Source: an uncultured Bacteroidaceae bacterium
Lineage (GTDB): Bacteria > Bacteroidota > Bacteroidia > Bacteroidales > GCA-2748055
NCBI GenBank assembly: GCA_964572225.1
Contig: CAZNFR010000010.1
Coordinates: forward strand, 1 to 62,274
DNA: 62,274 bases
Reading direction: 5' to 3'
Part shown: one piece after another, positions 2,640 through 29,137 of the stretch
Position numbering within the stretch: the first letter of the stretch is position 1
How the letters are laid out: each line of letters begins with the position of its first letter
Made by a program: the position numbers and the translations under genes
Notes under the pieces: model-generated
What the model saw: the letters and a program-made list of their open reading frames with translations, nothing else
Database searches by the model: none
Told to the model about the DNA's origin: nothing

Positions 2640-2645
2640 AAAAGG

Positions 2646-5911: not shown

Positions 5912-5973
5912 CAACTTCAACGGGTCAAGGGGTTGAAAAACTGATCATTACTTTTCCTGTTGATAACCCGGAA

Positions 5974-6003: not shown

Positions 6004-6020
6004 TTGAAATTACGAGTATT

Positions 6021-10547: not shown

Positions 10548-10561
10548 AAAACTTCAAACAG

Positions 10562-11858: not shown

Positions 11859-12204
11859 AAAACCTTGTTTAAATTTATTTCATCATTTAACATCAGGAAT
11901 TCCAAGATGTTTAAAGGCCTTTCATTTCGACTTTCATCCTTTTTACCCCTTTCCACAATTATTTTGGTTTGGAAATTGAAAAAGTTCATCAATGGAAAGA
12001 TGACATTCGTAAAAAGGATTGAATATATATTTAAAACATTGAATATCAATTGAATACATATTCTTATTTTGACGTGTGCGTTCTAAGGACTTGTAAACGT
12101 ATCAATTTATTCGATAAATACATATATAACGGGCAGTTGCTGAGATTGTAAGTCTGTTTTTTTATCTATTTTGGCAGCTCGAATCAATTTGGATTTTATT
12201 TATA

Positions 12205-15200
12205 ATGTTACAAAAAATTTCAAACATATTTCTTATCGAGAGGAACCACTTGAAGCCCGTCATCGTCCTTGCGATCCAGGCTGCTTTAATTGGCTTGGCA
12301 GGGGCTGTTTATGATATTAGCGCATATTCTTATATAATATCAAAATACAGTACAGGGTATTTGCCTCAACTATTTCTTATCTCCGGGGCTTTTGGGTTAT
12401 TAATAGGCTTCGTTTACGTATTTCTTCAATCCAAAATGAATTTTCGTTTTTTCGGATTGTTGAATTTGATTTTCATTTTTATCATACTGGCATTAATTCC
12501 GGTGCTATTCGCTTATATCGAGAGCATATTTCTGGATTTTGCTTTTTTTGCTCTGATGGGCCCTTTGTCCGTTATTGGCATTATTGGATTCAGGAATACC
12601 AGTATCCGCGTATTTCGTTTTAACCAGAACAACCAGCTAAAAAAAATATTTGATACCTCGTTAATGGTGGGTATTGCTGCAGGTTCCATCCTGGTTCCAC
12701 TTTTTATTTGGACGGGAGCTCAGCTCATCGATGCATTGTACCTGAGTGCTGGGGCCATATTACTGGGGTTCTTTATTCAATTGTATGTGAATCGAAGATA
12801 TAAGAAGAATTTCAATTTAAAACCGGTTGATGAAAAGACCGAAAAACCAGGGGATTACCTAAGGATATTCTGGAAAAGGAACAACCTGTTTATTGCCGGA
12901 TTTGTGGCCTTTTCCATTTTCACCCTCTTCCTGTTGCAATACATCTTTCTCTTTGAAACATCTGTTGTAATCCCGGGGGAAAGGTCCTTCTCTGCATTTC
13001 TGGGTATTTTTACCGCGGCTTCCATGATCGTTGCACTTTTGATCAGATTCTATTTATCCCCGGTTTTATTCCGGAAATACGGACTTAAGGCTGGATTATT
13101 CTCAACCCCTCTGATTATCACAATATTATCAATAGCAGCAGTGTTATCAGGAATATCCACAGGAATTCAGCCCTACCTTTCCACTTTCCCTTACTTTTTG
13201 CTGATTATCCTGGGTAGTCGTTTTTTTGTAAAAGTATCCCGGGATTCCCTGGAACTTCCTTCCATGAAGATCCTGTTTCAGTCAATCGATACCCGGCAAA
13301 GGATCAATATACAATCCAAGATCGATAGTCTTATCAATGAATTGTCGGTTTTCCTTACCGGCGCCCTCCTGGTATTTCTGGTTGATTATGCCGGACTGGG
13401 GATTTTCCAGCTGACTCTCATTTTGGTGGCTGCTTCATTCCTGTGGATGATAATGGCCTTCACTCTTAACCGGTCCTACCGAAAATCTCTCAGACTGTCC
13501 ATCTCAAGAATGAAAGGCAGAAAGGGAAAAGTGAGTTCTGCCAGCGGAATTATCGACATGGATCTGAACAACGATGGGAATCCCCCTAACCTGAAACAGA
13601 TCCTGGAATACGCTCCCCAAAGCTGGGATGGTTTCATTACCAGAAACCTTAAAGATCTGCTCGAACAAGGGGAAAGACCTGTTCAGGACCTAACCCTTCA
13701 ATGGATTGACCGGCTCAATATGGCAGAGACTCAAAATATACTTATCTCCTTTGAGAAAAATGCCGATAATACTGATCGTAAGCAATTCAGACAGCTAATT
13801 GATCGGTTCAACCTGAAAAAGTCCGAAATTACCCCCGAACTGGTCGAAAATTTATCCGCTTCTGCTGATCCTATCGACCGGCTCAAGGCAATAACCGCTA
13901 TAATCAAGAATCCATGGACCGTTACCAGTGCCCCGATTAGCCGGTTATTGAAAGACCCTGATTACAGAGTCAGGATATCCGCCATAAGGATAACCGGAAA
14001 ACTGAAATTGGCTGAATATGCGGGACAACTGATTGAATATCTCGATAACGAGGATTTCTATCCTTTCGCAAGCAATTCCCTCAGGGATTTTTCAGATCTT
14101 GTTCTGGATAAACTGGATTGTGCATATAATAGTCCTGACTCCTCCATACGTCTTAAGCTAAGGATTATCAGAATATTCGGATATTCAAACAGCTATAAAG
14201 CTTTTGAATACCTGCTGAATTACCTTCAGGAAAACCATCTGGTTTTAAAAAGAGAATGCATATTGGCCCTGAAAAGGTTGAAATTTGAACCTGAAGAGGA
14301 AATCCGGGATGAAATGATCCGTCAGCTTAAACTAGTTACCTCAGTTGTAGCCTGGAACCAGGTTATGCGTTATAATTGCAGAAAAAACGGACTTTCGGGA
14401 ACATTATACGGCTCTATGAGTGAAGAGGTGAGAGACAGCTATTCCCTTCTCTTCGAGATCCTATCCTTGTTATATGATGAGGGAATTATTATGGAACTAA
14501 AAGAAAACCTTCTGTCATCCCGTTCAGACCAAATCGGTTTTTCAAGGGAGATTGCAAGTTTCCTGTTAGAACCGAAAATCACAGAATTTCTTTTACCCCT
14601 TATGGAAGAAGGTTCGGTCAATACCTTACTGGCAAGAATTTCAAGGCAATTCCCCGTAAAAAAATTCAATGCTGAAGAAACCCTAAGGGAAATCATAAAC
14701 CGGGACCTCAATTACATCCACCCGGTTACCAAGATCCATGCCATCCGGAATCTGAATATTCTTGAAAAGCATGGAAATGTTGATTATCTTGTGGCTCAGG
14801 TGTTTAATCCGGTAATGTCCATGGCTGAAGAGTCAGCCGGACAACTCAAAGAATTGGATCCCGATAGGCTGAATGAAGTCACCAACCGCCTGGATCCTGA
14901 TAAACGCCAACAATTGGACAAATATTTTAAAACAATAAAATCAGGAAACCCCGAAGGACAGTTTAATAAGTTTGTTTATCTTAGGGATTCTCAATTACTG
15001 AAGGGACTTACTAACCTGTCCTTGTTCAAACTATCTGAAGAGTTTCGTTCTTTTTACCTGAATGAAGGTGATACACTTGATCTGACAAAATATTTCAGCC
15101 AAAATATACTTTTGTATATTGTTGAAGGTAAGTGTGATATTAAGGATATCGAGATCGGACATGCCGGAAATGGTACCGATGCTCTCATTAAAGTGAAGCT

Positions 15201-15363
15201 CGAAGCCGAACCGGATAAGTCGAAATTGAAAATCCTGGCTAAAACCCGGGCGATACTGCTAACTATCGAAGAAAAGAAAATCAGGGAACTGATATTTGAC
15301 GATGAGCATAACTTCTTATCCGTGTTGGGAATAATCACAGAATTCAGGCAGGAAGTTTTATAA
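12205..15363 (+). CDS. NTT/TLC-like MFS transporter fused to HEAT repeats and a degenerate cNMP-binding-like domain
   Basis: About 12 hydrophobic helices in aa 1-425 with an R-x-S...P...LF..I....R......ID motif; HEAT units (LLKDPDYRVRISAIR); C-terminal LRDSQLLKGL...EGD...YIVEG CNBD-like pattern. Confidence 0.7.
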   Translation: MLQKISNIFLIERNHLKPVIVLAIQAALIGLAGAVYDISAYSYIISKYSTGYLPQLFLISGAFGLLIGFVYVFLQSKMNFRFFGLLNLIFIFIILALIPVLFAYIESIFLDFAFFALMGPLSVIGIIGFRNTSIRVFRFNQNNQLKKIFDTSLMVGIAAGSILVPLFIWTGAQLIDALYLSAGAILLGFFIQLYVNRRYKKNFNLKPVDEKTEKPGDYLRIFWKRNNLFIAGFVAFSIFTLFLLQYIFLFETSVVIPGERSFSAFLGIFTAASMIVALLIRFYLSPVLFRKYGLKAGLFSTPLIITILSIAAVLSGISTGIQPYLSTFPYFLLIILGSRFFVKVSRDSLELPSMKILFQSIDTRQRINIQSKIDSLINELSVFLTGALLVFLVDYAGLGIFQLTLILVAASFLWMIMAFTLNRSYRKSLRLSISRMKGRKGKVSSASGIIDMDLNNDGNPPNLKQILEYAPQSWDGFITRNLKDLLEQGERPVQDLTLQWIDRLNMAETQNILISFEKNADNTDRKQFRQLIDRFNLKKSEITPELVENLSASADPIDRLKAITAIIKNPWTVTSAPISRLLKDPDYRVRISAIRITGKLKLAEYAGQLIEYLDNEDFYPFASNSLRDFSDLVLDKLDCAYNSPDSSIRLKLRIIRIFGYSNSYKAFEYLLNYLQENHLVLKRECILALKRLKFEPEEEIRDEMIRQLKLVTSVVAWNQVMRYNCRKNGLSGTLYGSMSEEVRDSYSLLFEILSLLYDEGIIMELKENLLSSRSDQIGFSREIASFLLEPKITEFLLPLMEEGSVNTLLARISRQFPVKKFNAEETLREIINRDLNYIHPVTKIHAIRNLNILEKHGNVDYLVAQVFNPVMSMAEESAGQLKELDPDRLNEVTNRLDPDKRQQLDKYFKTIKSGNPEGQFNKFVYLRDSQLLKGLTNLSLFKLSEEFRSFYLNEGDTLDLTKYFSQNILLYIVEGKCDIKDIEIGHAGNGTDALIKVKLEAEPDKSKLKILAKTRAILLTIEEKKIRELIFDDEHNFLSVLGIITEFRQEVL

Positions 15364-15393
15364 GCTCAGATTATTTAACTTAATTAGCAGAAA

Positions 15394-18300
15394 ATGAAAT
15401 CATCTGTCATTAAAGATACGAAAAAGGGTAGAGATATCGTACCCTTTCCCGGCTTAAGGGCTTTTACTCCCGAAGATTCTTCCTTTTTCTTCAGGGATCC
15501 GGAGTTCGTCAAAAGCACAACAAACACGCTGATTGACAAAAAGCTTCTCATGCTGACCGGTCCCTCTGGTTCAGGGAAAACCTCACTGGTAAATGCCGGG
15601 ATCATTCCCTTGCTGAACCGACAGGGGGGATGGATAATTATTTCCATGGTTCCCGGTAATGATCCGCTTCCCAATCTATATACATCGATCAGAGATGCAC
15701 TTAATCCTGCAGCCCCTGATTTTGATAAGGGCAAATCTTTTCCGGACCAGGTCATAACCCTGCTTGAAAATAATTCAGGAAAATCATCGGATAAAATCTT
15801 GCTCTTTATTGATCAATGGGAGGATCTGTTCAGATTCCAGAATTTCTCGAAAGCAGGAGAGGTGGAAAGAATCCGAAAAGAGGCAAGTGATTTCCTCTCA
15901 GCCGTACTTCTTACCGATCAGATTCCGGTCTGGTTGGCACTGACCATGAATATAGATTTTCTTAAGGAAATGAACCGGTATCCTTCCACGCTCCGGTTGT
16001 TGAATGGTCGGCATATTCTTATGCCTGCACCCGGAGATAACGAACTGGTCATGGCTATGGAAGAGCCGGTTAAACTGGCAGGTGCCTCCATAAGTTCAAA
16101 ACTGGTTGAACATCTTGTTAAAGAATTGAAAGAGGTCGAGCAAAAACTGCCCGCATTACAGTTTACTATGTGGTTAACCTGGGAAAACTGGAAAGCCAAT
16201 AATCCTGAAGGCAGGACCATTTCGCATACCGACCTTGAAGCAGCCGGTGGATTAAAAGATTCGACCGCTAAATATCTGGACAGTATTTACCTGAACCTTT
16301 CCAAAACTCAACGACCCATTTGTGAAAAAATATTCAAGTCACTTACCGAATTGGGAAGCAGTGGTGAGATCCTGAAAAGAAGGATGAAAATCTCCCTGCT
16401 ATCCCAGATAGTTCTTGCTCCGGTCGACACCATTATTGATGTGATCAACCATTTTCGATCTGAACAGATCTCATTTATCCTCCCGGGTTGGGAAACAGAT
16501 CTTTCTGCTGAAACGGTTGTGGAACTTTCGCATGAATCTATTGCAAACCTGTGGAAAAGGCTTGATTTGTGGACCCGCGAAGAGAGAGAATCGGTGGAGA
16601 TCTATCAAAAACTTGCCTACGATGCCTCCCGTTACCAGGTTGGAAAAACCAGTCTGTTAACTCCTCCCGAACTTGACCGGGCCATTTCCTGGAAAATGAA
16701 AAACAGACCCAATCTTGCATGGGCTGAGAGATATGACCCCGCTTACGAGAGAACCCTCGTATACCTGAATACAAGTGAACAGGAATTTGAACAGTCAAAA
16801 GCCGTAAAGGAACGGAAAAGGAAATTAAATCTTTTGAGGACCAGGGTTTTAGCTTCGATTTTTAGTGTAGCCATGGCTATGTTTCTATTTCTTTATTTTA
16901 AGGCAGATACCCGATCGGACGAGTTCCAGGCCGCCTTTATTCAGTCCGAGAACCTGAGAACCCTGGCTGAGCAGCAGGCAGCAGAAGCAATCGAAAAGCA
17001 AAAACTGGCTGAACAAATTGCAGATGAGGCCCTGGAGCAACAATCCAGTTCCGATAATGTCGCAAAACTTGCTGAACTCAGACGCCTGAGAGCTGAACAA
17101 AAGGCACAGGAAGAAGCTACCCGGGCAGCTCTTGCCCAACAAAATCTGGCCGCTGCCAACACAGAAAAAGTAGCTGCCATACAAAATCAGGAGGAAGCAG
17201 ACCAGCAAAGAAAGGAAGCCGAAAGAGCCAGAATGGCCGAATTTACCCGCAGGGTCCTTTCCACCTCCGAATCCATGTCCATTAAATCTCTTCAGATTAA
17301 TTCCGATCCGGAATTAAAAGCCCTCCTTGCTCTTCAGGCGTTCCGCTTTAACGAGCAATACGAAGGAAACAATTTTACCCCGGAGGTTTATACCTCTCTC
17401 TATGAGTCTGTGAAAAGCCTGCTTGGGGATGACTATAATTATTACAAGGGCCATACCAATGTGGTCCGGGCGGTCAGCTTCCTGCCCAGAACCTCCTCAT
17501 TTTTCAGTGCCGGAAGCGATGGCAGGATCCTGAAATGGAACCTCAATACCTCCACTACCGATTTTGCCGTTATGGCCTCCGGTAGAAATGTGATCGATCA
17601 ACTGGAAGTAAGTTCCGACGGCCGGTGGCTTTTAGCCGCTGAGAACAGAAATGGCTTATTGGTTATAAACCTTGAATCCAACAATCCGGTGGCCGAGCTT
17701 TTCTCCGGTAGAGAAAAAAATATAAGAAGCATAACCATCGCTTCCGATAATAATACGGTTTATACTGCAGGACTTGAAAATTATATTGAGGTTTGGAACC
17801 TTCTCGGCAGAAGTAGCAGGATTCTGACCGAAACGGAATCTCGCATAAATGCCCTCTCTGTTTCCCCCGATGGTTCGATTTTGGCCGGAGGAACACGCGA
17901 TGGTAAACTTATGATCTGGAGGGTGAGAGGGGATATGGCAAGCAATTCCGTCTTTGATAATAATGGGAATGCCATTCAAACCGTAAAGTTTTCTCCGAAT
18001 GGAAGATACCTTGCAGCCGGTGACGTAAGAGGAAACCTCATGATCTTCCGGGCTGATAATTTCGAGATCCTTCGAATTCTGCAAGGTCACGAGGCGCGTA
18101 TTACCGACGTTGAATTCAGTGAGGATAGCCGGTATCTTACCTCAACCTCTTACGACGGTAAGGTGTTTTACTGGAACACCGGAAATTTTTCACTTAAGCC
18201 CATAGAACTCAGCGATAATGAAGGATTTGTATTTGCCAGCAGTTATAGTACCGATGGCAGGTTCGTGGTTACCTGTAGTGCCGAAGAACCCAGGCTGGTG

Positions 18301-18432
18301 GTGCGACCTGCCGCTTCCTCCATCATTGCCGAAAGTATCTGCCGTCTTGTATCCCGGAATATGACACAGGAAGAATGGAATGACTTTGTAGGTGGCGATA
18401 TTGAATATCTTCGAACCTGCCAGAATAAATAA
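15394..18432 (+). CDS. nSTAND1-type P-loop NTPase with TM helix, coiled coil and 7-blade WD40 domain
   Basis: PFPGLRAF, Walker A GPSGSGKTS, Walker B LLFIDQWEDLF, LPALQF, VELSHESI; TM near 16843-16899; A/E/Q-rich coil; seven WD repeats. Confidence 0.85.
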   Translation: MKSSVIKDTKKGRDIVPFPGLRAFTPEDSSFFFRDPEFVKSTTNTLIDKKLLMLTGPSGSGKTSLVNAGIIPLLNRQGGWIIISMVPGNDPLPNLYTSIRDALNPAAPDFDKGKSFPDQVITLLENNSGKSSDKILLFIDQWEDLFRFQNFSKAGEVERIRKEASDFLSAVLLTDQIPVWLALTMNIDFLKEMNRYPSTLRLLNGRHILMPAPGDNELVMAMEEPVKLAGASISSKLVEHLVKELKEVEQKLPALQFTMWLTWENWKANNPEGRTISHTDLEAAGGLKDSTAKYLDSIYLNLSKTQRPICEKIFKSLTELGSSGEILKRRMKISLLSQIVLAPVDTIIDVINHFRSEQISFILPGWETDLSAETVVELSHESIANLWKRLDLWTREERESVEIYQKLAYDASRYQVGKTSLLTPPELDRAISWKMKNRPNLAWAERYDPAYERTLVYLNTSEQEFEQSKAVKERKRKLNLLRTRVLASIFSVAMAMFLFLYFKADTRSDEFQAAFIQSENLRTLAEQQAAEAIEKQKLAEQIADEALEQQSSSDNVAKLAELRRLRAEQKAQEEATRAALAQQNLAAANTEKVAAIQNQEEADQQRKEAERARMAEFTRRVLSTSESMSIKSLQINSDPELKALLALQAFRFNEQYEGNNFTPEVYTSLYESVKSLLGDDYNYYKGHTNVVRAVSFLPRTSSFFSAGSDGRILKWNLNTSTTDFAVMASGRNVIDQLEVSSDGRWLLAAENRNGLLVINLESNNPVAELFSGREKNIRSITIASDNNTVYTAGLENYIEVWNLLGRSSRILTETESRINALSVSPDGSILAGGTRDGKLMIWRVRGDMASNSVFDNNGNAIQTVKFSPNGRYLAAGDVRGNLMIFRADNFEILRILQGHEARITDVEFSEDSRYLTSTSYDGKVFYWNTGNFSLKPIELSDNEGFVFASSYSTDGRFVVTCSAEEPRLVVRPAASSIIAESICRLVSRNMTQEEWNDFVGGDIEYLRTCQNK

Positions 18433-18450
18433 ACCAAACCTTCAAAGACC

Positions 18451-19521
18451 ATGAGCAGATCCATAGTAATGGCCCTTTTTATCTTCACCCTGATCTTCCC
18501 ATTTCAGGATATGTACGGCCAGGAACAAACGAATTGCTCCCAGAATCTCCAGACCGCCCAGGAACAGTTTGAGATGGGACAGGTGGAGGAGGTACCCCAA
18601 CTCCTGATCGGTTGTATCCAGTCGGGCTTTACCCCTCAGGAAAGAATAAGGGCATATAAGCTGTTAATCAATGCTTATATTTTCGATGACAATATTATGG
18701 AAGCCGAGAAGTATGTTCTCGAGTTTATGAGAAGGTATCCCGAATATCAGACGGATAATACCGATGCCTTTGAATTTATTAACCTCTTTGAGCAATTTGA
18801 CAATAATCCAAGAGCCTCCGTGGGCATCTATGCAGGGACCGGATTCTCCAATATCAGGGTTTCGGAACCATTCGGAGTGCACAATTATTCTATCGACGAC
18901 GACTCTGAGTCTTCACTGGGAAATTATAGAAATGGTACACCCGGATTTCAGGCCGGGATCCTCTACAATCATTATCTTTCTACCAGTTTTGAACTCACAG
19001 CAGAACCTGGTTTTTTTCAGCAATCTTTTGTTCATGAGGTGGAGCCATTTGAATTCAGCAGGGTAACATTCACTGAAAAACAATTCGGACTGACTCTCCC
19101 CATTAGTCTGTTATACTGGTTTGATACGGAATCTAAGTTTAAACCCTATATCAGAGGCGGAGCTTCCATTTCCTACCTTATGGGTTCCAACAGCATAACC
19201 GAAAGACAGTATATCAATACAGGAAACGTCACCCTCGAAGATATTACCGGACCGGAAACAGAAACAACCGACTCCCGGAAACGGATTAACTACCATGCAT
19301 TTTTTGGGGGTGGGATCCGATACGAAATACCACAGGCATTTTTTTTCCTGGATATACGATATAATGTCGGACTCAATCAAATGGTAGAGGACCAGAACCG
19401 GGCACTTACCATAAATGATAATCCATGGCTTTTCTACTATCAGGAAGATAATTATTACCATGATGCCCTCCTAATTTCTTTTGGATATGCCAAAACCCTC
19501 TATCGACCGAGAAGAAAATAA
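18451..19521 (+). CDS. Outer-membrane beta-barrel (PorT/porin-family-like) with N-terminal TPR-like helical domain
   Basis: Signal peptide, helical N-domain with two Cys, amphipathic strands (FKPYIRGGASISYL, FFLDIRYNVGL, LLISFGY). Confidence 0.7.
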   Translation: MSRSIVMALFIFTLIFPFQDMYGQEQTNCSQNLQTAQEQFEMGQVEEVPQLLIGCIQSGFTPQERIRAYKLLINAYIFDDNIMEAEKYVLEFMRRYPEYQTDNTDAFEFINLFEQFDNNPRASVGIYAGTGFSNIRVSEPFGVHNYSIDDDSESSLGNYRNGTPGFQAGILYNHYLSTSFELTAEPGFFQQSFVHEVEPFEFSRVTFTEKQFGLTLPISLLYWFDTESKFKPYIRGGASISYLMGSNSITERQYINTGNVTLEDITGPETETTDSRKRINYHAFFGGGIRYEIPQAFFFLDIRYNVGLNQMVEDQNRALTINDNPWLFYYQEDNYYHDALLISFGYAKTLYRPRRK

Positions 19522-19534
19522 CCTGCTCAGCCTT

Positions 19535-20701
19535 ATGAAGATCAAATTCTTATCATATTTCCTCCTGATTATCCTTTTTATGGGTTGTGAAAAGGAAATT
19601 TCCGATTCACAGAAGGACTATTTTATCAAAATGTATGGGAGTTACCTTCGCGACCGGGCAGTCTGCATCCTCCCTTCAACCTCCGGGAATTTTCTCGTGT
19701 GCGGTACATCTGATACTGAAAACAATGGGAGCGATATAGTCCTGTTCACCATCGATGAATCGGGAAACAGAATCTCAGATTTTAATTATGTCGGACTCGA
19801 AGGTAATGACAGGGCTTATTCTATGAAAAGAACCGGAAACGGGTTTGTAATCTCCGCCTTCGTAACCAATGCCCAGGGAAATCTGGATGCAGCTATTTTT
19901 ACCGTAAATAATAATGGGGAAATAATCAACGACCTTTCCCTGTTCGGAGGAACAGGAAATGATTATGCCTACGATGTTGAGGAAAGACATGAAGAGGGGT
20001 ATATTTTTGTGGGCTCCACCCAGCAGGCCGGACTTGACCTGCTCTACATCGTAACCGTTGACGATAATGTCGAAGGCCCGGATGTATCCAGAAATCTTAG
20101 TGGCATTCAGGCCCGGTTGAACAGGGTGTTGAAAACCAGCGATGGAGAATATATTGCCGGCGGAACCAACATTACCGATCCTGCCAACAGCTATAGCCGG
20201 ATGATGCTAACAAGAATAAATAAGGATGGAAACTTTTACATTGTCCGGTATTTCGGAAACGAAAATGAGAACCTGATTCTTAATGATATGGTTCAGCAGA
20301 ATGATTCAGTGATTTTCCTTATGGGTACCCTTAAAGATACCCAAACAGAAGTTGGCAGAGTAATCCTGAAAAAGATCGTAGATTTTCGAGAGCGTGAATC
20401 CTATACCTTCAGTGCAGATGGCAGCCTGGATGCCAAAGCACTCTCTTTAAAAGAGGATGGCAGCCTGATCATGGTTGCCGATCAGACCATTGCCGATGAT
20501 AAGAATGTAATGCTATTCCTGCTGAACTCCGAAGGACAGGAGATTGCTGATAGAAAGCGGTACGGAGGAACAGGGGATCAGACAGCCAGTGATGTCATTT
20601 ATCAGAATGGCAGTATACTCATTCTGGGGGCGAATTCCTATCGGGGAAATAGTATGATTTCCCTGATTAAAACTGATGAGAACGGGAATACCTGGAATTA
20701 A
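19535..20701 (+). CDS. Lipoprotein with beta-propeller-type repeats
   Basis: Start at ATG 19535 gives a signal II peptide with lipobox LFMG-C; repeated (Y/F)G....D.A..(I/V) units. Confidence 0.75.
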   Translation: MKIKFLSYFLLIILFMGCEKEISDSQKDYFIKMYGSYLRDRAVCILPSTSGNFLVCGTSDTENNGSDIVLFTIDESGNRISDFNYVGLEGNDRAYSMKRTGNGFVISAFVTNAQGNLDAAIFTVNNNGEIINDLSLFGGTGNDYAYDVEERHEEGYIFVGSTQQAGLDLLYIVTVDDNVEGPDVSRNLSGIQARLNRVLKTSDGEYIAGGTNITDPANSYSRMMLTRINKDGNFYIVRYFGNENENLILNDMVQQNDSVIFLMGTLKDTQTEVGRVILKKIVDFRERESYTFSADGSLDAKALSLKEDGSLIMVADQTIADDKNVMLFLLNSEGQEIADRKRYGGTGDQTASDVIYQNGSILILGANSYRGNSMISLIKTDENGNTWN

Positions 20702-20842
20702 AAAATCAGTTCTTCCCACTATGATTTAAATGAATAAAACCAGGGTAGTTCCATATGATAATATTCATTTCATCACAAAACGTAATGAGCGTTTTAATGG
20801 AAGTTTCCACAAGACCGGTAAAAAATATAAAATAGTATAAGC

Positions 20843-23800
20843 GTGAAAACCAGAATCAGAAGAAGTATTTTAAGACAGATAGTTATTATTGGAGCAGGAT
20901 TGATGCTTTATTCAGGTTTGTCGGGACAATCTGCATCCCTGGGAGGTACCCTTTCCGTCAATAATACGGAAGGAGATGTGAGAACAGGAGGTCAGACCAT
21001 TGTTATTTCTATACTTGGTGATTTCTGGGATGGGGATGTCGGAGATCCTGGTCCGGAGACCGATGCCCTACTTAACGGATTTTCGGGTGACGGTGACTGG
21101 GCGAGTATTCGCGCTTTGCTCTCCGATGCCAACGTTGTCCGTAACAATTTTGCAACCGTTACCATTACCCTGCCCGCACTTCCGGGATATAATATATTCA
21201 ACAATGAGACCCTTAAGCTTACCATAGGCGGAGCTGCACTTACCAGCGGAAATCCTTTGGCTGCCGGCAACGACCTGACCATTCTGGCAGATCCGGTGTT
21301 GGGCTTTAACTCCAACACACTGGTTACGGGTTCCACCCAGGAATCGAATATCCGCACAGGAGGAAGGATCCTGGATGTGAAAGTCAGAAACGATGTCTGG
21401 GTAGCTGCCATTGGCAATAACAATGCAACTACTAACGCTTTTCTTGACGGAATTACCGGTACACAAAACTGGTCAGTGGTTAGAGCAGCTCTGAATTCTA
21501 CCCACGTAACCAGACAAAATGATACCGTGGTGCGTGTGAATTTACCCGCAGTAACCGGTTACTATCTGGAAGCAGATGAAAGTGTGAGTGTGAACATACC
21601 CGGAAGCGCCCTTTTAAATACAGGGAATCCAGTGGTTTCCACCCCGGATATTGCGATTTCCAATGAAGCAGTCTCCATTACCGTAGATGGGAGCGTTTCT
21701 CCGGGTGCTACCGAGGGGGAAGTACGAACCGGCGGTGAAACCATTGATCTGACGATTAAGGGAGATGTGTGGGCCGATGATGTGGGGACAAACGTAACCG
21801 TAACCAATGGCATAATTAAGGGAATTACCGGAAGTACCTCCTGGAATACTAATGTCAGAGATGCCCTGACTACACTCAATGTACAGCGGATCTCGGATAC
21901 CCAGGTACGGATTACCCTGCCCGCAGCGGCATCTTATGATATTTCGGTTATCGATAATATTACCGTTACCGTAACTGCAGCAGCCATAAAGTTTCTTACC
22001 TCCGGATCGGTGGTTGCCGATAATGGGTTTACAATCAGTCCATCGGCTGCAACGGTTAGCGTAAGCGGAAATATTCAAAGTGGGGCCAATGATCAGGAAA
22101 GTTCCATAAGGGCCGGGGGATCGACCATAATCCTTACGGTGAGTGAAGATTCCTGGGTTGCTGGAATTGGGGAGAATACGGTTCAGAACCAGCAACTAAT
22201 CAATGGAATTTCGGGTAATCAGATTTGGAACACTATCGTTAGACCGCTTATACTCGGAGCAGATAGGGGAGCCGCAAACATTAGCGTTTCCGGAGATATT
22301 GTGACGATCTCGGTCCCGGCAATTCCAAGCTATTATCTGGAGACCAATGAAAGTCTCAGCATCACCGTGCCTGCAGTGGCACTAGTAAATTCTGCCCTAG
22401 GGATCAACGCCATACCCTCGCTTACAATTCTGAATGAGGATGTAAGTCTGGCAGTCAGCGGAACGGTGACCCAGCTACCTCAAAAGAGCGAGGAAGATAT
22501 CCGTAGCGGAGGGGAAACTCTGGTGCTTACCCTCACCGGCGACCAGTGGTCCGACGATATTGCTTCCAACTCGGTAACCGCCAATAACCTGTTTGCAGGA
22601 ATTACGGGAAGCCAGGGTACATGGGACGCAACCATACAGCCCGCTCTGGATGTTTCCGACATCGTAAGAAACAGCTCAACGATAATAACCATAAATCTTC
22701 CGGCGGTCGCTTCTTACGACATATCATCGGTCGAGAATATAGCCATTTCAGCGGCCTCTTCAGTGCTAAAATACACAAGTTCAGGTCAGATAGGCGGAAA
22801 TCCCACTTTCTCCATTGCTCCCATTGGAGCTTCAGTAAGCGTAAGCGGGAATATCCAGTCCGGACTTAATAATACTGAGTCGGACATTCGCAGTGGGGGA
22901 TCCACGATTATCCTTACCGTTAGCGAAGACTCCTGGGTTGGAACCCTGGGAAGCGATAATGCTGTCACCTCCAGTCTGATTAACGGGATAAACGGAGGGA
23001 CTACCTGGAACACCAATGTAATCAATGCAATCCTTGGGCCGGATAATGGTGCCTCCAATGTAAGTGTCTCCGGAAGTACCGTTACCGTTACCATTCCGGC
23101 AGTGCCCGATTATTACCTTAACGGAAACGATATTGTCACCATCACCGTCCCTTCAGCTGCTCTTCAAAGTACCACTACCTCAGTGGTTGCCAGCCCTACT
23201 CTAACCATACAGAATGAAGGAGTGAGTATGACGGTAAGCGGAACCCTTACCGGATTAACTACAGAGGAAGACATACGTAACGGGGGCCGTACGATGATCC
23301 TTAATCTGACCGGAGATGAATGGCCGGATAACATTGCCAGCAGTACCACTGTATCCGATATTCTTTTTGCAGGTATCAGCGGAGATGGGATCGAATGGAA
23401 CAGCAAGGTGAGGGATAATCTCACCACTACCCACATTGTCAGAAACAATGACACTCGCGTTACCATTACCCTTCCGGCAACTGCAGGCTATGACATTTCT
23501 TCAACCGAAACAGTTCAGGCCGTAGCTGCTTCAGGTGCTCTCAAATATTCCAATACAGGAAGCGTCACAGGAAATCTTTCGGTCCAGATTACCCCACTGG
23601 GAGGAAGTGTGTCCGTCTCCGGTAATATTCAGTCGGGTGAATTTAATACCGAATCAAAAATTCGTGAAGGTGGAGCCACCATTTTGCTTACCGTTTCGGA
23701 AGATAGTTGGGTTAGCGGACTAGGAAACAATAATGCTCTAACTGCTGAATTGGTTAATGGAATCACCGGAAGCAGTCGCTGGAACAGCTCAGTTATTTCA

Positions 23801-26800
23801 GCCATTCTTGGAAGTGATAACGGGGCAGCCAACGTCGGTGTTTCAGGGAATGTCGTTACCATTAACATCCCTGTTGTGAACGATTACTTCATCAATTCGA
23901 ATGATGTTATCAGCATTAGTGTACCTGCCAGTGCATTGAACTCGTCCACTTCACCCGTAACGGCCTCTCCCTCCCTTACTATTCAGAATGAGCCTGTAAG
24001 TCTGGCTCTTACTGGAACTCTGGTAAGCCTTCCCACAGAAACAGAACAGGATATTCGTGATGGAGGGGAAACCATGATTCTTACCCTTTCAGGAGATGAG
24101 TGGGCAACGGGAGTTGAAAGTAATACCACCCTGGCTAACGCATTGATAAATGGAATCAATGGCAGCGGGACTGCCTGGAATTCAGTGGTAAAACCCTTGC
24201 TTAATGCTTCTCATATTACACGGAATTCCAATGTCAGACTCACAATCACCCTTCCAGCCGCTCCCGGATATGAAATTGATGTGGCAGAGAGTATTACGGT
24301 CAGTGCAACGGCATCAACCCTGAGATATCTCACTACCGGTTCTGTAACCGGAGCTCCGGCTATGAATATTGTACCACTGGGAGCAAGCATAGAAGTGACC
24401 GGAACCATACAATCAGGCACCTTCAACACGGAGGAAAAAATTCGCGAAGGAGGCGGCACCATAATTCTGACGGTTTCTGAAGATACCTGGGTTTCTTCAG
24501 TGGGAAACAACAATTCGGTTACCGCGGCACTTATAAACGGTATCAGCGGCAGTTCGGAATGGAATACCAAGGTGGTACCGGCTATCCTGGGAACCACTAA
24601 CGGAGCAGTGAATGTAGACCGTTCGGGTAACATCGTCACAATCACAGTGCCGGCCGTACCCGGCTATAATATTTCCAGTGTGGATAATGTTACCATTCTG
24701 GTACCCAATGTATGCCTAACCAATACCAGCAGCGGTTCGGTGGCTGCCTTCCCCACCCTGGCCATTTCCCCGGCCGCAGGTAAGGCTTTTATCAATGATC
24801 CGGGTCTTATTGAATCAACCCTGAATGGATCTACCTTGCAGTTTACCCTGCAGGATGAAACTTTTCTTAACGCCACATTGGCAAGCAGTAATTTCAGTCA
24901 CAACGGACCTCCCTCGATCACCATAAGCTCGGTGAATTATGTAAGTCCTATCCAGGCCAGCCTTACCCTTGGGTTCTCGGGAGATATCGACAGCGACCTT
25001 AATGATTTCAGGGTTACCGTAGACGCTAATGAATTAAGCGGGACCACCAACCTGACTTCCAATGCCATTTCTATCCAGGCTGAGCTTGAGCCAAGGATCA
25101 CCGATGTAGATATACCTGATGGGGTATACAGTATTGGTGAAGAGTTAACCGTCCTGATAACCGTGGTTAATGATCAGGGCGACACCTATAGTTACAATTC
25201 AGGTACCGTGGCCGGTAATCCTCTTGCACGGCTGGAAAGGCAGTCCAGTACTCTTTACTATGGATATTTCACGGTTCAGGAAGGGCAAACCGATTACGAT
25301 GCCGGTGACCTTATCCCGGTATCAAACCTTGTGCTAAGAAACGGTTCCCTGATAGGAGATCCTTTTTCAGGAAGTATCAGCGGACAGGTGGCTATCGATG
25401 GTAGCAAACCAAAAGTTACAAGTCTCCAGGTTTTTGGAGCAAGTAAGAAAATCGGGGATGATATTGACATTTTAGTTTTTGCAAACGGTGATAATTATAC
25501 TGCCATTACCCCAACCTCTGTGAATGGTATCCCCATTTCAGCTCCAAATGTAAACCTGATAACCCTTGGGAACAATGCTTATATCCTCAGATATACTGTG
25601 GCTGAGGGAGACGATGATGTTAGTGAAGGCAATCTCACTGCCCAGATCGTGATGAGGGATCCCTCCGGAAACGAGAGCGATCTGTTTAATACGGTAAACA
25701 CCAACTATATTACCATTGATGCGAATTCACCCATGATCAGCTTCATAACCGTCCGTGATAGTGTCTATACGATCGGCGATGTTATCCAGGTAACGATTCA
25801 GACAGATGGCTCAAACTATAGTTTCAATTCTGAGACTTTTGTAAATGGTATTCCATTTACTTCCACCTACCTTACCGGATCCTATATCGGCTCTAATCAA
25901 TACCGTCTGTCTTACACAGTCAGGGCCACCGATCCCGAAATTGAAACCGGGGAAATTGAAGTGACCGTCAGAATGTCGGATCCGGCAGGAAATATTAGTG
26001 CTCCATACAATGAAGTCGAATCCAACAGTCTCGCTCTTTACACCACACTCCCCACGGCAACCCTTTTCGGAACCCAGGAAATCTGTGCCAGGGATTCTGC
26101 CAGACTTATCGTGAACCTTACCGGAAGGGCTCCATGGACTTTCTACCTCTTCGATGGAAATACCACAAGAGAATTTACGGATATATTTGCCTCTCCCTAT
26201 GAATTTTTCGTCAAACCAGCAACCACTCGAAGCTACAGGGTTGATTCAATACTGGATTTTAACGGAATCAAGAATAGCGGAGCTGGAAATGTTACCGTAA
26301 CGGTGAATCCGGTGATTGATGTGGAAATAATTAACCTTAATACCAGTTATTCGGTAGAGGATGACCCGATTGTGCTTCAGGCAAATGTAACGGGGGGAAC
26401 CTTTAGCGGACCAGGGGTTATTACTGCCACATCCACCTTTGACCCTGGTATAGCCGACACCCTTAATTCACCGCATTCCATTGTTTATACCTATATAACC
26501 AACAAGGGCTGCGTTAGTTATGACACGGCAATTGTTTTCGTCCTTGGTGCAGAGGGCGACATATTTATACCCAAACAGGTATTCTGCAACTACGATCCTG
26601 TATTTGAAGTTATTGCATCCAATACAGCAGATGCCATCGGAAGTTTCAGGCTGCTTAATGAGGATGAACAGGAGGTTGTCGGACTCTCAGACAGTTTGAA
26701 TAATAAGGCAGGGATCGATCCTTCCTTACTCGATCCTGGTTTCTACATTGTTGATTATACCTATGAGGACGACGGAACCACACTCAATCTGAAAGACTAT

Positions 26801-29137
26801 TTCACCGTCGAATCGGCCGTTACACCAAAGATTATTACCCTCGACCAATCGGCATATTGTCAGAATGAACCCGCCTTTGACCTTGAAGGGGATATTGCTT
26901 CTGCGATTTTTGCAGGCCCCGGGGTAAGTGGAAATGTAAATGATGGTTTTGTGTTTACTCCTGCCGATGCCTTCATTGGAAATAACACCATCACCTACAC
27001 CAATACCACAGCCAACGGATGTTCCAGCTCTGTTTCGAAAACGGTAAGAATCAATTATGTTCCTGAGATAGAGTTCCAGGTGAGTGGATTGTGCGTGAGC
27101 AGCAGCGATACAATATTCTTTGATAATACAACCATAAATCAATATACCATTGCGGAGTGGTCCTGGGAATTTGGTGACATCAATAGTGGCTCCCAAAATT
27201 TCGCTTCTACCGTAGATGCATATCACGTGTATACCCGGCCAGGAGTCCGTACCATAACTCTGGAAGGAACTACTGCACAGGGTTGTACCGATATTGCAGA
27301 AAAAGTTATTGAATTCGGAGATAAACCCACCGGAACCATAAGCTGGGATAACGAATGTTTTGTTGAAGGTGATTCCATTCTTTTCGTAAATGAAACATTC
27401 AGTGAAAATGAAATTACCAGCTACAACTGGAGTTTCCTTAAAGGCAATGATCAGATTGGAAGCAAGAATGGAAACGATTCGGTTTATTTCACATTCGATA
27501 ATCTGGATAATTATAAGGTAGAAGTTTTTGTGGAAACCGAAATCGGATGTTCGAATGTGTTTGAACGGGAAATTGTCCTCAAACCAACCATTCTGCTGGC
27601 CGATGAAGGAGGATACTTTGAAAACTTTGAATCCGGAGCCGGCAGATGGTCGGTAGATCAGTCTGCAGAATCGGAAAACATTAGCTGGAGGTATGGAGAT
27701 TTCAATTTTGAAGGATATGGTGGTGAACCTACCCAGGCATGGTATACCGATCTTCCTGGAACTGTAAAGGATGAACAGTCCTGGGTGATATCACCATGCT
27801 TTGATTTCCGGGGTGTGGAAAGGCCTGTAATATCGCTGGACATCTTCAGGAGTCTCCAAACCGATTGGGAAGGGGTGGTGATGCAATATTCCGTGGATAA
27901 TGGTGAAAACTGGCAGAACCTGGGTTCGATCAACGAGGGAATTGAGTGGTTTAATTCATTTGAGATCACTCAACAGCCTGGCGGACAGGATATAGGTTGG
28001 ACAGGCTACCAGCAGGCGGATACTTTCAAAAACGCCAAACGGTACGCAGATCAGTTGATCGGGTACCCGAATGTACGTCTTCGTCTGATCTTCGGATCGG
28101 ATAATACACAATATCAGTTGAGAGAAGGGTTTGCATTTGATAATTTCTCCATAGGAACCCGAACCCGACAGGTATTGCTCGAACATTTCACCAATACTTC
28201 AGAAACCAGTGTAAGAGTTCCAGATGGCCATGTGAATTTTTTGTACAACAGAAATTTCCGAGATGCGGTAAAATTAGAGTACCATACTGCGTTTCCTGGT
28301 CCGGATCCATTCTATGCATTGAGTGAGTTTATCAGTGATGCCCGTAGCCTCTATTATGGGATCAATTCTGTACCCTATACTCTACTTGACGGTGGATTTA
28401 AAGGAAGCCTGGTATACGATGATCCGATTTCCATCGCAGGAATGGATGACAACGATGTTCTCCTGCTTGCCCTGGAGGATCCGGTTTTCCGGATCGACGT
28501 GGATGCCAGTATTTCCGGTCAACAGTATATCGTTAATGTTGACGTTGAAGCACTTAGAGACCTGGGGTCCGAGGAAAGAATTCTTCATGTTGTGATATTC
28601 GAGAAACTTTTGGAAGGAGTATCAACCCTAAACGGTCAGTCCAATTTCCTTAACGTGGTGAGGGATATGTTGCCAAATGCAGCCGGAACCGCCAGCTTTA
28701 AGTCATGGCAGGAGGGAGAGTCCGAACAGTATCAGTTTGTTTGGGATATTGCCGATGTGGAGGATGTACAAAATCTAAGAGTAACCGCATTCATTCAAAA
28801 CGATAATACTTTTGAAGTTTATCAGGTTGCCACCAACGATCAAACCAATTTGAACACCTCTTCGGATAACAGAATAGCTGTACCGGTAGAACTCACCATT
28901 TATCCGGTACCCTCAAATGCTGAAGTAAACCTTTATCTCTCAGGCTTTGAGTCAGGCTCTTATAAACTGGAAATCTATGATAAACTTGGAAGAATGATTC
29001 ACAATGAATCCTGGGAAAGCTATGAGGCTCTGAAAACATTTGAATCCCAAAGGTTTACACGTGGTGTTTATTTTGTAAGACTGGTCGACGATTATGGAAG
29101 GGTAAGGGCAATTAAGAAGATGGTGATAATACGCTAA
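20843..29137 (+). CDS. Giant T9SS-secreted surface protein (10 tandem ~128-aa repeats, Ig-like/PKD domains, jelly-roll domain, Omp28-like domain, type A CTD)
   Basis: GTG start, signal peptide, PKD signature WSWEFGD...HVYTRPG, CTD IYPVPS...GVYFVRL...KKMVIIR. Confidence 0.88.
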   Translation: MKTRIRRSILRQIVIIGAGLMLYSGLSGQSASLGGTLSVNNTEGDVRTGGQTIVISILGDFWDGDVGDPGPETDALLNGFSGDGDWASIRALLSDANVVRNNFATVTITLPALPGYNIFNNETLKLTIGGAALTSGNPLAAGNDLTILADPVLGFNSNTLVTGSTQESNIRTGGRILDVKVRNDVWVAAIGNNNATTNAFLDGITGTQNWSVVRAALNSTHVTRQNDTVVRVNLPAVTGYYLEADESVSVNIPGSALLNTGNPVVSTPDIAISNEAVSITVDGSVSPGATEGEVRTGGETIDLTIKGDVWADDVGTNVTVTNGIIKGITGSTSWNTNVRDALTTLNVQRISDTQVRITLPAAASYDISVIDNITVTVTAAAIKFLTSGSVVADNGFTISPSAATVSVSGNIQSGANDQESSIRAGGSTIILTVSEDSWVAGIGENTVQNQQLINGISGNQIWNTIVRPLILGADRGAANISVSGDIVTISVPAIPSYYLETNESLSITVPAVALVNSALGINAIPSLTILNEDVSLAVSGTVTQLPQKSEEDIRSGGETLVLTLTGDQWSDDIASNSVTANNLFAGITGSQGTWDATIQPALDVSDIVRNSSTIITINLPAVASYDISSVENIAISAASSVLKYTSSGQIGGNPTFSIAPIGASVSVSGNIQSGLNNTESDIRSGGSTIILTVSEDSWVGTLGSDNAVTSSLINGINGGTTWNTNVINAILGPDNGASNVSVSGSTVTVTIPAVPDYYLNGNDIVTITVPSAALQSTTTSVVASPTLTIQNEGVSMTVSGTLTGLTTEEDIRNGGRTMILNLTGDEWPDNIASSTTVSDILFAGISGDGIEWNSKVRDNLTTTHIVRNNDTRVTITLPATAGYDISSTETVQAVAASGALKYSNTGSVTGNLSVQITPLGGSVSVSGNIQSGEFNTESKIREGGATILLTVSEDSWVSGLGNNNALTAELVNGITGSSRWNSSVISAILGSDNGAANVGVSGNVVTINIPVVNDYFINSNDVISISVPASALNSSTSPVTASPSLTIQNEPVSLALTGTLVSLPTETEQDIRDGGETMILTLSGDEWATGVESNTTLANALINGINGSGTAWNSVVKPLLNASHITRNSNVRLTITLPAAPGYEIDVAESITVSATASTLRYLTTGSVTGAPAMNIVPLGASIEVTGTIQSGTFNTEEKIREGGGTIILTVSEDTWVSSVGNNNSVTAALINGISGSSEWNTKVVPAILGTTNGAVNVDRSGNIVTITVPAVPGYNISSVDNVTILVPNVCLTNTSSGSVAAFPTLAISPAAGKAFINDPGLIESTLNGSTLQFTLQDETFLNATLASSNFSHNGPPSITISSVNYVSPIQASLTLGFSGDIDSDLNDFRVTVDANELSGTTNLTSNAISIQAELEPRITDVDIPDGVYSIGEELTVLITVVNDQGDTYSYNSGTVAGNPLARLERQSSTLYYGYFTVQEGQTDYDAGDLIPVSNLVLRNGSLIGDPFSGSISGQVAIDGSKPKVTSLQVFGASKKIGDDIDILVFANGDNYTAITPTSVNGIPISAPNVNLITLGNNAYILRYTVAEGDDDVSEGNLTAQIVMRDPSGNESDLFNTVNTNYITIDANSPMISFITVRDSVYTIGDVIQVTIQTDGSNYSFNSETFVNGIPFTSTYLTGSYIGSNQYRLSYTVRATDPEIETGEIEVTVRMSDPAGNISAPYNEVESNSLALYTTLPTATLFGTQEICARDSARLIVNLTGRAPWTFYLFDGNTTREFTDIFASPYEFFVKPATTRSYRVDSILDFNGIKNSGAGNVTVTVNPVIDVEIINLNTSYSVEDDPIVLQANVTGGTFSGPGVITATSTFDPGIADTLNSPHSIVYTYITNKGCVSYDTAIVFVLGAEGDIFIPKQVFCNYDPVFEVIASNTADAIGSFRLLNEDEQEVVGLSDSLNNKAGIDPSLLDPGFYIVDYTYEDDGTTLNLKDYFTVESAVTPKIITLDQSAYCQNEPAFDLEGDIASAIFAGPGVSGNVNDGFVFTPADAFIGNNTITYTNTTANGCSSSVSKTVRINYVPEIEFQVSGLCVSSSDTIFFDNTTINQYTIAEWSWEFGDINSGSQNFASTVDAYHVYTRPGVRTITLEGTTAQGCTDIAEKVIEFGDKPTGTISWDNECFVEGDSILFVNETFSENEITSYNWSFLKGNDQIGSKNGNDSVYFTFDNLDNYKVEVFVETEIGCSNVFEREIVLKPTILLADEGGYFENFESGAGRWSVDQSAESENISWRYGDFNFEGYGGEPTQAWYTDLPGTVKDEQSWVISPCFDFRGVERPVISLDIFRSLQTDWEGVVMQYSVDNGENWQNLGSINEGIEWFNSFEITQQPGGQDIGWTGYQQADTFKNAKRYADQLIGYPNVRLRLIFGSDNTQYQLREGFAFDNFSIGTRTRQVLLEHFTNTSETSVRVPDGHVNFLYNRNFRDAVKLEYHTAFPGPDPFYALSEFISDARSLYYGINSVPYTLLDGGFKGSLVYDDPISIAGMDDNDVLLLALEDPVFRIDVDASISGQQYIVNVDVEALRDLGSEERILHVVIFEKLLEGVSTLNGQSNFLNVVRDMLPNAAGTASFKSWQEGESEQYQFVWDIADVEDVQNLRVTAFIQNDNTFEVYQVATNDQTNLNTSSDNRIAVPVELTIYPVPSNAEVNLYLSGFESGSYKLEIYDKLGRMIHNESWESYEALKTFESQRFTRGVYFVRLVDDYGRVRAIKKMVIIR
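20960..24780 (+). repeat. Ten intragenic tandem domain repeats (~372-393 bp period), alternating A/B types
   Basis: E..(I/V)R.GG motif recurs near 20970, 21341, 21713, 22097, 22490, 22877, 23264, 23651, 24044 and 24431. Confidence 0.9.

Follow-up and report, generated by a model that had tools for sequence, protein, structure and literature searches.

A conserved five-gene cassette of Bacteroidales proposed to relay surface events to a membrane-spanning STAND NTPase

The DNA analysed here is contig CAZNFR010000010.1 (assembly GCA_964572225.1) of an uncultured Bacteroidaceae bacterium; the whole stretch of 62,274 nucleotides (nt) is referred to as the window. It contains a cassette of five co-oriented genes, denoted g1 to g5 (Table 1), that are separated by gaps of 30, 18, 13 and 141 nt. 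The coordinates of these open reading frames (ORFs) agree with an earlier note on the same DNA, which had been prepared from the letters alone. The cassette is placed between housekeeping genes as described there, with parC and aroK on one side and psd, cdsA and ftsH on the other. The targeting signals by which that note had assigned one product to each layer of the envelope were all recovered; they were seen here as membrane helices, leaders, Cys18 of g4 and the C-terminal domain of g5. Thus, the locus would provide an inner-membrane carrier (g1), an inner-membrane STAND NTPase with a WD40 propeller (g2), an outer-membrane protein (g3), a lipoprotein (g4) and a giant type IX secretion system (T9SS) cargo protein (g5). 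We consider it rather probable that the five genes constitute one envelope-spanning relay from the cell surface to the cytoplasm. The domain content of the products, the conserved linkage of the genes and a model of the contact between the WD40 propeller and the helical N-terminal domain of g3 (g3N) were established computationally, as described in the following.

Table 1 Genes of the cassette and their main features, in positions of the window
Feature	Positions	Strand	Description	Basis
g1	12205-15363	+	1052-aa NTT(TLC)-HEAT-cNBD carrier	
g2	15394-18432	+	1012-aa membrane-spanning STAND NTPase	
g2 membrane helix	16846-16902	+	residues 485-503	hydropathy scan
g2 WD40 propeller	17431-18429	+	predicted periplasmic	Pfam, hydropathy scan, complex model
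g3	18451-19521	+	356-aa outer-membrane protein: leader, helical g3N, small beta-barrel	
g3N	18517-18804	+	g3 residues 23-118; helical, periplasmic, two conserved Cys	alignment
g4	19535-20701	+	388-aa lipoprotein, all-beta propeller, in no Pfam family	
g5	20843-29137	+	2764-aa T9SS cargo protein	
g5 C-terminal sorting domain	28898-29128	+	T9SS sorting domain	Pfam

The linkage of the cassette genes was evaluated in the best 80 of 110 g3-bearing relatives found by a g3 pattern scan of public genomes, all of them metagenome-assembled genomes (MAGs) of uncultured Bacteroidales or Bacteroidota; the denominators given for these MAG loci count those with enough flanking DNA to be assessed. The end of g2 is less than 400 nt away from the start of g3 in 75 of 76 loci, and 48 of 59 have g1 upstream of g2. 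A g4 gene was found by tblastn after g3 at 50 of 67 loci, and inspection of the ORFs revealed lipoprotein genes at several of the loci missed by tblastn. A g5-like gene follows downstream in 40 of the 41 loci that offer at least 9 kb of downstream DNA. Among 41 related genomes that were searched, 23 of the 24 belonging to the same family gave a g2 match (WD40-only matches included); full-length matches came from at least 20 genomes. The cassette genes present in 20 loci from close relatives keep the order seen in the window. Since the housekeeping flanks of these loci are ordered likewise, co-localisation in close relatives is weak evidence when taken by itself.

A survey of 301 Bacteroidales genomes identified nSTAND1 domains in 85. 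Out of 65 nSTAND1 genes of the g2 type, 53 have a g3-profile match directly downstream. The remaining 12 comprise six whose downstream neighbour is a g3N protein with the length of a TonB receptor, recognised by a sensitive hidden Markov model only, four that lie at a contig end, and two with neither; that is, a g3N protein comes directly after the g2-type gene in 59 of 61 assessable cases. Across the phylum, g3N matches were found in 20 of 401 sampled genomes. In another order of the class, the arrangement g1-(gY)-g2-g3-g4 plus a giant ORF occurs in G626 (twice), G674, G431 and G533, gY being an additional gene described below. The giant is a g5 homologue of 2327-5125 aa in four of these five cassettes, with the last 710-940 residues aligning to g5, and Por_Secre_tail was present in both giants checked with Pfam. 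No match to any window ORF of 100 aa or more was obtained with the ORFs flanking four of the other-order cassettes. Carriers in that order include genomes reported as 100% complete in few contigs, which may be isolates, in which case the predictions made below would be directly testable.

Two further cassette types were recognised, both with a g2 homologue or paralogue. At 12 loci (L113, L132, L135-L140, L150, L151, L153 and L155, two of them from other classes) a g2 homologue is directly followed by a gene for an 862-897-aa protein that starts with g3N. In this setting g3N forms the N-terminal extension of proteins with Plug and TonB_dep_Rec_b-barrel domains; Pfam confirmed both domains in the two members of the 12 that were scanned, and also in two g3N proteins from elsewhere (L130, L131). 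A g1-like gene is found 1-3 genes downstream of the receptor in at least seven of the 12 loci, and g1 thus stays near g2 also in a different gene order. There are hints of a metabolic side to this cassette type: the receptor gene is followed by an HMGL-like gene (pyruvate carboxyltransferase family, 403-411 aa) in L113, L135 and L138, and by a GNAT acetyltransferase gene in L140. The third cassette type combines a gY-like protein of reduced length with a g2 paralogue (about 1087 aa), a g3-like barrel, a further product of some 400 aa and a PP2C phosphatase; it was found complete at seven loci with varied flanks (L118, L120, L122, L124, L127, L128 and L129).

Because the arrangement recurs in well over 100 genomes, it is far beyond chance. 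Homologues are co-localised not only within the window's lineage; the cassette also recurs in another order with unrelated flanks. A deletion in one relative is informative as well. G176 (L134, G176:C1:1178000-1194000, a single contig), one of the two survey cases without a g3N protein after g2, keeps aroK-g1-gY-g2 and the ODP gene, and has lost g3, g4 and g5. This joint loss suggests that the latter three form a unit. At the same locus an unrelated 486-aa gene on the opposite strand replaces g3-g4-g5. In L056 and L066, g2 is distributed over two ORFs, accompanied by fragmentation of g4 and the g5 region in the former and of g1 and gY in the latter. As neighbouring loci are intact, these two are read as decaying copies or poor assemblies.

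The g2 product matches nSTAND1 (PF20703) with 228.6 bits (cut-off 27.1) over residues 17-416, and its WD40 repeats score 108.9 bits. The order of domains is nSTAND1 NTPase, membrane helix (residues ~485-503), a linker rich in A, E and Q, and the WD40 propeller (residues ~680-1012). An alignment of 56 orthologues shows G56, G59, G61, K62 and S64 of Walker A as well as D140 of Walker B to be invariant, and Q141, F142 and E143 nearly so; given this conservation of both motifs, the NTPase is probably active. Two cysteines at the end of the propeller, C983 and C1009, are also nearly invariant. A hydropathy scan predicts a single membrane helix in the region of residues ~485-525 in 56 of 56 orthologues. 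In all 56 sequences, the 15 residues preceding the helix contain 4-7 K/R and those following it 0-5. Under the positive-inside rule, this excess on the N-terminal side points to an N-in, C-out orientation, which would place the NTPase in the cytoplasm and the linker and propeller in the periplasm. The cysteine pairs C983/C1009 in the WD40 domain and C29/C55 in g3N fit an oxidising compartment. No effector or adaptor domain of the kind usual in STANDs of conflict systems is fused to the N-terminus of g2, the NTPase beginning at residue 17. Screening against the models of PADLOC-DB v2 gave a weak P-loop match of g2 to mad8 (E 4.2e-5, 21.2 bits) and no match for g1, g3, g4 or g5. An assignment of the cassette to a PADLOC-listed defence system was rejected on this basis. 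The nSTAND1 clade was defined as one of conflict-system NTPases (PMC8195603), and the accessible text of that paper mentions neither "periplasm" nor DUF4062.

The g3 product combines an N-terminal hydrophobic leader, g3N and a barrel that matches OMP_b-brl_2 (Pfam, 42.2 bits, cut-off 27). Its AlphaFold2 (AF2) model, with a pLDDT of 92.1, shows helices followed by a barrel, for which the fold search returned generic barrel likeness to OmpA, OmpW and Ail. Neither Pfam nor the fold search found a Plug domain in the g3 of the window. Two cysteines of g3N, C29 and C55, are invariant in the orthologue alignment. The earlier note had described g3 as an outer-membrane barrel with a helical N-domain and g2 as a STAND-WD40 protein, and both descriptions are borne out. 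PorT/SprT was examined as a candidate identity for g3 and discarded, the score for NF052311 (25.6 bits) falling far below the curated cut-off of 125. In L013 (10224-11188, G011, on a contig shared with L053) the g3 orthologue is split into two pieces in different frames, 10487-11188 and 10224-10499, which suggests a frameshift or assembly error.

The pair formed by the g2 propeller and g3N has the strongest comparative support and was therefore selected for complex prediction (g2 residues 660-1012 with g3 residues 23-120, each with an alignment of 56 rows). An ipSAE of 0.84 was obtained (0.84, 0.79 and 0.84 in the individual runs), as compared to 0.02 for the best control. At least 94% of the contacts agree between runs, and the partner has a pLDDT of at least 83. 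Of 80 solved complexes, 58 reached the mark set for the tool, as did 2 of 110 mismatched pairs; these counts hold only roughly here because custom alignments were used. In the model, the g3N loops 41-46, 78-82 and 107-111 pack against one face of the propeller, where residues 900-902 and 919-922 of g2 oppose g3 residues 41-46 and 78-82. The confident model thus predicts that g3N binds a face of the WD40 domain. Modelling of this pair had been proposed in the earlier note as a check, and an interaction is what it returned. That the five genes behave as one system has accordingly withstood scrutiny on both grounds that were probed, namely co-localisation and predicted interaction.

For g1, the hydropathy scan predicts 12 membrane segments within residues 18-421, followed by HEAT repeats (~544-696) and a cyclic-nucleotide-binding-like domain (~925-1035). 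HEAT_2 is the Pfam family matched (37.6 bits, cut-off 27.7); no match to TLC (PF03219) was obtained at E<0.01. A search of the Protein Data Bank (PDB) with the single sequence identified the carrier NTT1 (9j3n, E 3.7e-6). A profile built from 40 orthologues recovered the same entry with E 4.1e-13 at profile positions 122-436, together with alphaRep/HEAT proteins (up to 6e-33, positions 555-696) and the cNMP-binding domain of PKG (E 2.1e-8, positions 926-1034). A weak match of the profile to the cNMP-binding domain of PycTIR, a Pycsar effector, was seen as well (E 9.4e-4). In the Atlas, the closest clusters bear the name "Cyclic nucleotide-binding/HEAT/TLC ATP/ADP transporter" and carry cNMP_binding, HEAT_2 and TLC. 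These matches, from single sequence, profile and Atlas neighbours alike, sustain the earlier view of g1 as an NTT-like carrier with a HEAT/CNBD tail. An ordinary MFS carrier was also considered; MFS_1 scored 24.3 bits, under its cut-off of 33.4, and with the profile matching NTT1 this candidate was dropped. Judged by its sequence, g1 is a member of the NTT-HEAT-cNBD fusion family, in which the three domains come in the same order. Major et al. 2017 (PMC5381601) describe this fusion as widespread in bacteria and functionally uncharacterised, and report that NTT carriers transport nucleotides including ATP and NAD. While g1 shares the identical domain trio in identical order with the carriers treated there, the accessible text of that paper mentions no link to a STAND NTPase, an outer-membrane protein or a T9SS cargo.

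Two additional genes occur between g1 and g2 in relatives. At 33 of 59 MAG loci gY lies directly upstream of g2, and at 11 of 59 gX is found in the interval; nine loci resemble the window in having g1 and neither gX nor gY. The former encodes a protein with a DUF4062 domain (30 bits, cut-off 24.7) and an N-terminal TIR_2-like stretch that scores 26 bits, just under the cut-off of 28. In L049 the gY gene overlaps g2 by 4 nt. DUF4062 has been reported to function in anti-phage defence as a TIR-like NADase, and to form the N-terminal module of TEP1 and NWD1, which are STAND-WD40 proteins (bioRxiv 10.64898/2026.05.01.722283). The product of gX is a HAMP-SpoIIE (PP2C) membrane phosphatase. In the genome of the window, the gX query detected PP2C paralogues only, with seven strong matches to the C-terminal domain and one weak match to an earlier stretch. 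A side observation concerns L147, where a 786-aa protein (9685-12045, G084:C243) with the C-terminal domain of Type ISP restriction enzymes (PF18135, 210 bits) is encoded between a gY-like gene and a g2 paralogue, a context that resembles a defence island.

By their signals, the remaining two products are a lipoprotein, putatively of the outer membrane, and a T9SS cargo protein. No match of g4 was found in Pfam, NCBIfam or PADLOC. Its hydrophobic leader is followed by Cys18, which is invariant in 56 orthologues, and by leader and cysteine g4 is classed as a lipoprotein. The AF2 model is a beta-propeller (pLDDT 93.6, pTM 0.90), with the propeller of CylK as best match in the PDB (TM-score 0.78, 18% identity), a generic propeller likeness. 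The g5 protein starts with a leader and ends in a Por_Secre_tail that covers residues 2686-2762 of 2764 (PF18962, 37.0 bits, cut-off 27). Pfam further reports PKD (23.9 bits, cut-off 23.5) and, under its cut-off, Omp28 (23.9 bits). A C-terminal module from about residue 1830, which ends in the sorting domain, is conserved; residues 1827-2764 align to the giants of the distant cassettes with E 4.5e-39 to 2.3e-65. The N-terminal part varies in length among relatives (proteins of 913 to 5125 aa), and relatives align at several offsets of it. Self-BLAST detected no internal repeats in g5 at E 1e-5, and no PDB sequence matched up to E 0.01. The search for the T9SS core in the source genome, which covered SprA and GldM, found both (2770 and 412 bits). 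Among the MAG loci, L038 has two g5-like giants that flank g2-g3-g4 (3-6239 upstream, 12352-17556 downstream), and L027 and L049 each have two g5-like genes in tandem downstream.

From these data, a relay can be outlined. The g2 protein would reside in the inner membrane with its NTPase in the cytoplasm, and its helix and long helical linker would carry the WD40 domain into the periplasm. There, one face of the propeller would bind the helical g3N of the outer-membrane barrel g3, which in turn would cooperate with the lipoprotein g4 and the surface protein g5 secreted by the T9SS. A surface event (ligand, contact or load on g5 or g3) would alter the contact between g3N and WD40, and the change would be passed through the membrane helix to the NTPase, flipping the switch by nucleotide exchange and oligomerisation. 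The switch would then act on a cytoplasmic partner, which in the window may be the HEAT/cNBD tail of g1; in most relatives it would also act on the TIR/DUF4062 protein gY and/or the HAMP-PP2C phosphatase gX. The net effect would be a traffic of nucleotides or NAD that is controlled by surface events. We infer in this outline the topology and the signalling direction, what g4 and g5 do, and the output via g1.

Several observations weigh against the relay. Much of the raw co-localisation in the window's lineage is inherited, the flanks being syntenic as well. There is no g1 upstream of g2 at 11 of 59 MAG loci, and the third cassette type is devoid of any g1. The cassette of the window contains no evident effector or transcription factor, and with the query used no gY homologue was found either in the cassette or in the rest of the genome; because effector, transcription factor and gY are missing from the window's cassette, an output via g1 is a conjecture. 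The topology of g2 is derived from a hydropathy scan and the positive-inside rule, and it is gene order that would place g4 and g5 in the system. Regarding the contact itself, the complex score expresses the confidence of a model and is not a measurement. Conservation at the predicted interface is 0.641 as compared to 0.631 for the rest of g3N (4433 of 10000 random subsets are as high) and 0.556 as compared to 0.522 for the rest of the WD40 domain (2295 of 10000). Being no more conserved than the domain background, the interface adds no support for the contact. Finally, g3N also occurs apart from g2: in seven loci from other classes (L158, L159, L161 and L163-L166) there is no g2 neighbour in the stretch inspected, and in Bacteroidales L131 has g3N on a TonB-dependent receptor without one. 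Hence, g3N predates the cassette and has a wider distribution. The proteins headed by g3N in those seven loci measure 208-594 aa.

The same architecture could serve immunity, which we regard as possible, albeit somewhat unlikely. In that case the periplasmic WD40 domain of g2, as an NLR/Apaf-1-like protein, would guard outer-membrane proteins used by phages or attacking cells, such as small barrels, TonB-dependent receptors and giant adhesins. A disturbed guard target would trip the STAND switch, and NAD or nucleotides would be depleted through TIR/DUF4062 in relatives or a leak through g1 in the window. The definition of nSTAND1 as a clade of conflict systems (PMC8195603) is in line with such a role, as is the position of gY directly upstream of g2 in 33 of 59 loci, with the 4-nt overlap in L049, for a protein that joins a TIR_2-like stretch to DUF4062, the reported anti-phage NADase (bioRxiv 10.64898/2026.05.01.722283). 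The weak match of the g1 profile to PycTIR, the highly variable length of the N-terminal part of g5 and the Type ISP restriction-like protein between a gY-like gene and a g2 paralogue in G084 point in the same direction. Conversely, the PADLOC result is limited to the weak mad8 P-loop match, and the copy in the window lacks gY. The PP2C, HMGL-like and GNAT neighbours are atypical of defence genes, and unlike mobile, patchy defence islands the cassette occupies a fixed housekeeping locus, with a g2 match (WD40-only matches included) in 23 of 24 genomes of the family. A more specific version, which we put forward as doubtful, envisages an Apaf-1/NLR-like immune switch that is split across the envelope. 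Its WD40 domain would hold the N-domains of the cell's own outer-membrane proteins, be they small barrels tied to a giant T9SS adhesin or TonB-dependent receptors, and a disturbed protein would release the switch, which would empty the cell of NAD or nucleotides, by way of the NADase gY in relatives and of a cNMP-gated g1 acting as a regulated nucleotide leak here. If true, this would be the first "guard"-type immune receptor to sense infection at the outer membrane, before the entry of DNA.

Alternatively, the cassette may be an uptake locus with cell-surface signalling, an explanation to which we attach a rather low probability. Here, g5, g4 and g3 (or a TonB receptor) would capture a substrate, possibly a nucleotide or cofactor, that g1 imports across the inner membrane; g2 would report the occupancy of the outer-membrane protein and tune uptake or metabolism in a manner similar to FecA-FecR. 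In the receptors encoded directly after g2 homologues, g3N indeed takes the position of a signalling extension before the Plug, and in at least seven of the 12 loci of this type a g1-like carrier follows 1-3 genes on, together with HMGL-like and GNAT enzymes. The transport of ATP, NAD and other nucleotides by NTT carriers (PMC5381601) would suit this function. Yet a Pfam search of g2 and its neighbours revealed neither sigma nor anti-sigma factors and no DNA-binding domain, the g3 of the window is a small OmpA/OmpW-like barrel without a plug, and STANDs of the nSTAND1 clade have so far been tied to conflict systems (PMC8195603).

It is improbable that g3 and g4 are merely biogenesis or anchoring factors for an adhesin g5, in the manner of the dedicated outer-membrane partners that other T9SS cargo have, next to an unrelated pair g1-g2. 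The joint loss of g3, g4 and g5 in G176, the g5-like gene in 40 of 41 loci and the weak PorT/SprT match of g3 (25.6 bits) would be expected from such factors, but the last of these is far under the cut-off of 125. Moreover, g3N adjoins g2 even where g4 and g5 are absent and the barrel is exchanged for a TonB-dependent receptor, g3-g5 still come with g1 and g2 in another order, where the flanks are unrelated, and the g3N-WD40 complex is modelled with high confidence. The notion of functionally unrelated genes whose order reflects inherited synteny in a slowly rearranging region is strongly disfavoured, with hardly any probability left to it: the order of aroK, Vut_1, ODP, psd, cdsA and ftsH is kept across the same MAG lineage, but in another order the cassette lies between unrelated flanks, rearranged forms recur (g1 downstream instead of upstream, a TonB receptor in place of the barrel), and among 61 assessable g2-type genes, 59 have a gene for a g3N protein next to them on the downstream side.

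The proposed relay can be compared to known types of system. FecA and FecR mediate cell-surface signalling for iron citrate. Similar to the FecA-FecR-FecI system, an outer-membrane protein carries an extra periplasmic N-domain, located before the Plug in the relatives, and this domain is predicted to contact the periplasmic part of a single-pass inner-membrane protein encoded by the adjacent gene. In contrast to FecA, g3N is all-helical with a cysteine pair and is not of the STN type (no Pfam STN match), and its partner in the inner membrane is no anti-sigma factor but a STAND NTPase that carries a WD40 sensor. No anti-sigma factor or extracytoplasmic function (ECF) sigma factor was found by Pfam among the cassette genes and their neighbours. 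Further, the outer-membrane component in the window is a small plugless barrel with a lipoprotein and a T9SS cargo, and the Plug receptor is restricted to relatives.

STAND NTPases such as Apaf-1, the NLRs and the bacterial Avs proteins are known as cytoplasmic sensors. With Apaf-1, NWD1, TEP1 and the bacterial antiviral STANDs, g2 has in common an nSTAND1 NTPase followed by a WD40 sensor, and gY upstream of g2 in relatives recreates the DUF4062-STAND-WD40 order reported for TEP1 and NWD1 (bioRxiv 10.64898/2026.05.01.722283). It differs from STANDs of the Apaf-1/NLR type in the membrane helix and long linker between NTPase and sensor, and the sensor of g2 should thus be outside the cytoplasm. 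Where there is an effector, it is a protein of its own (the copy in the window has no effector domain), and the predicted ligand is a domain of an endogenous outer-membrane protein. An inner-membrane anchor, a long periplasmic helix, a periplasmic beta-propeller and an outer-membrane lipoprotein are also reminiscent of Tol-Pal/TonB, but no sequence relationship was detected, the locus contains no motor genes of the ExbB/TolQ type, and the cytoplasmic part of g2 is a P-loop switch, not a proton-driven motor. In its logic the cassette resembles FecA-FecR, and in its cytoplasmic half switches of the Apaf-1/NLR type, but it lacks the defining features of both.

The earlier note knew of no characterised system with this composition, and our literature search concurs: no description of this cassette was found, the search having covered papers apart from their supplements, where neighbourhood tables for nSTAND1 or NTT fusions could be located. 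On computational evidence, the system appears new in kind. What sets it apart is a STAND sensor whose predicted position is outside the cytoplasm, where it would hold a domain of an outer-membrane protein. If true, double-membraned cells would have a new route for reporting from the surface to the cytoplasm, beside anti-sigma-factor and two-component signalling. The relay would also supply a first functional context for the NTT-HEAT-cNBD carriers, which are widespread and uncharacterised, for g3N as a new periplasmic domain of small barrels and TonB-dependent receptors, and for the giant T9SS surface proteins as a family. Among environmental Bacteroidales, the cassette is common.

Upstream of the cassette, parC and aroK are followed by a Vut_1 transporter gene (11064-11858, - strand). 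It is also found between aroK and g1 in many relatives, not in all, and lies outside the cassette of the other order. Downstream, an ODP-flavodoxin gene, psd, cdsA and ftsH are encoded on the opposite strand; the ODP gene is present downstream at 22 of 41 MAG loci. The ATG of g4 sits within a longer ORF that begins with TTG at 19481. Terminator-like sites number 21 in the window as compared to 19.8 expected, with none in the intergenic gaps of the cassette. As for promoters, a sigma-70 model does not fit Bacteroidota, and a Bacteroidetes-type pattern gave five matches in the window (2.75 expected) and none at 11859-29137. The listed runs that contain the stretch include no RNA run; it is present in three DNA runs, all from one study of a microbial mat.

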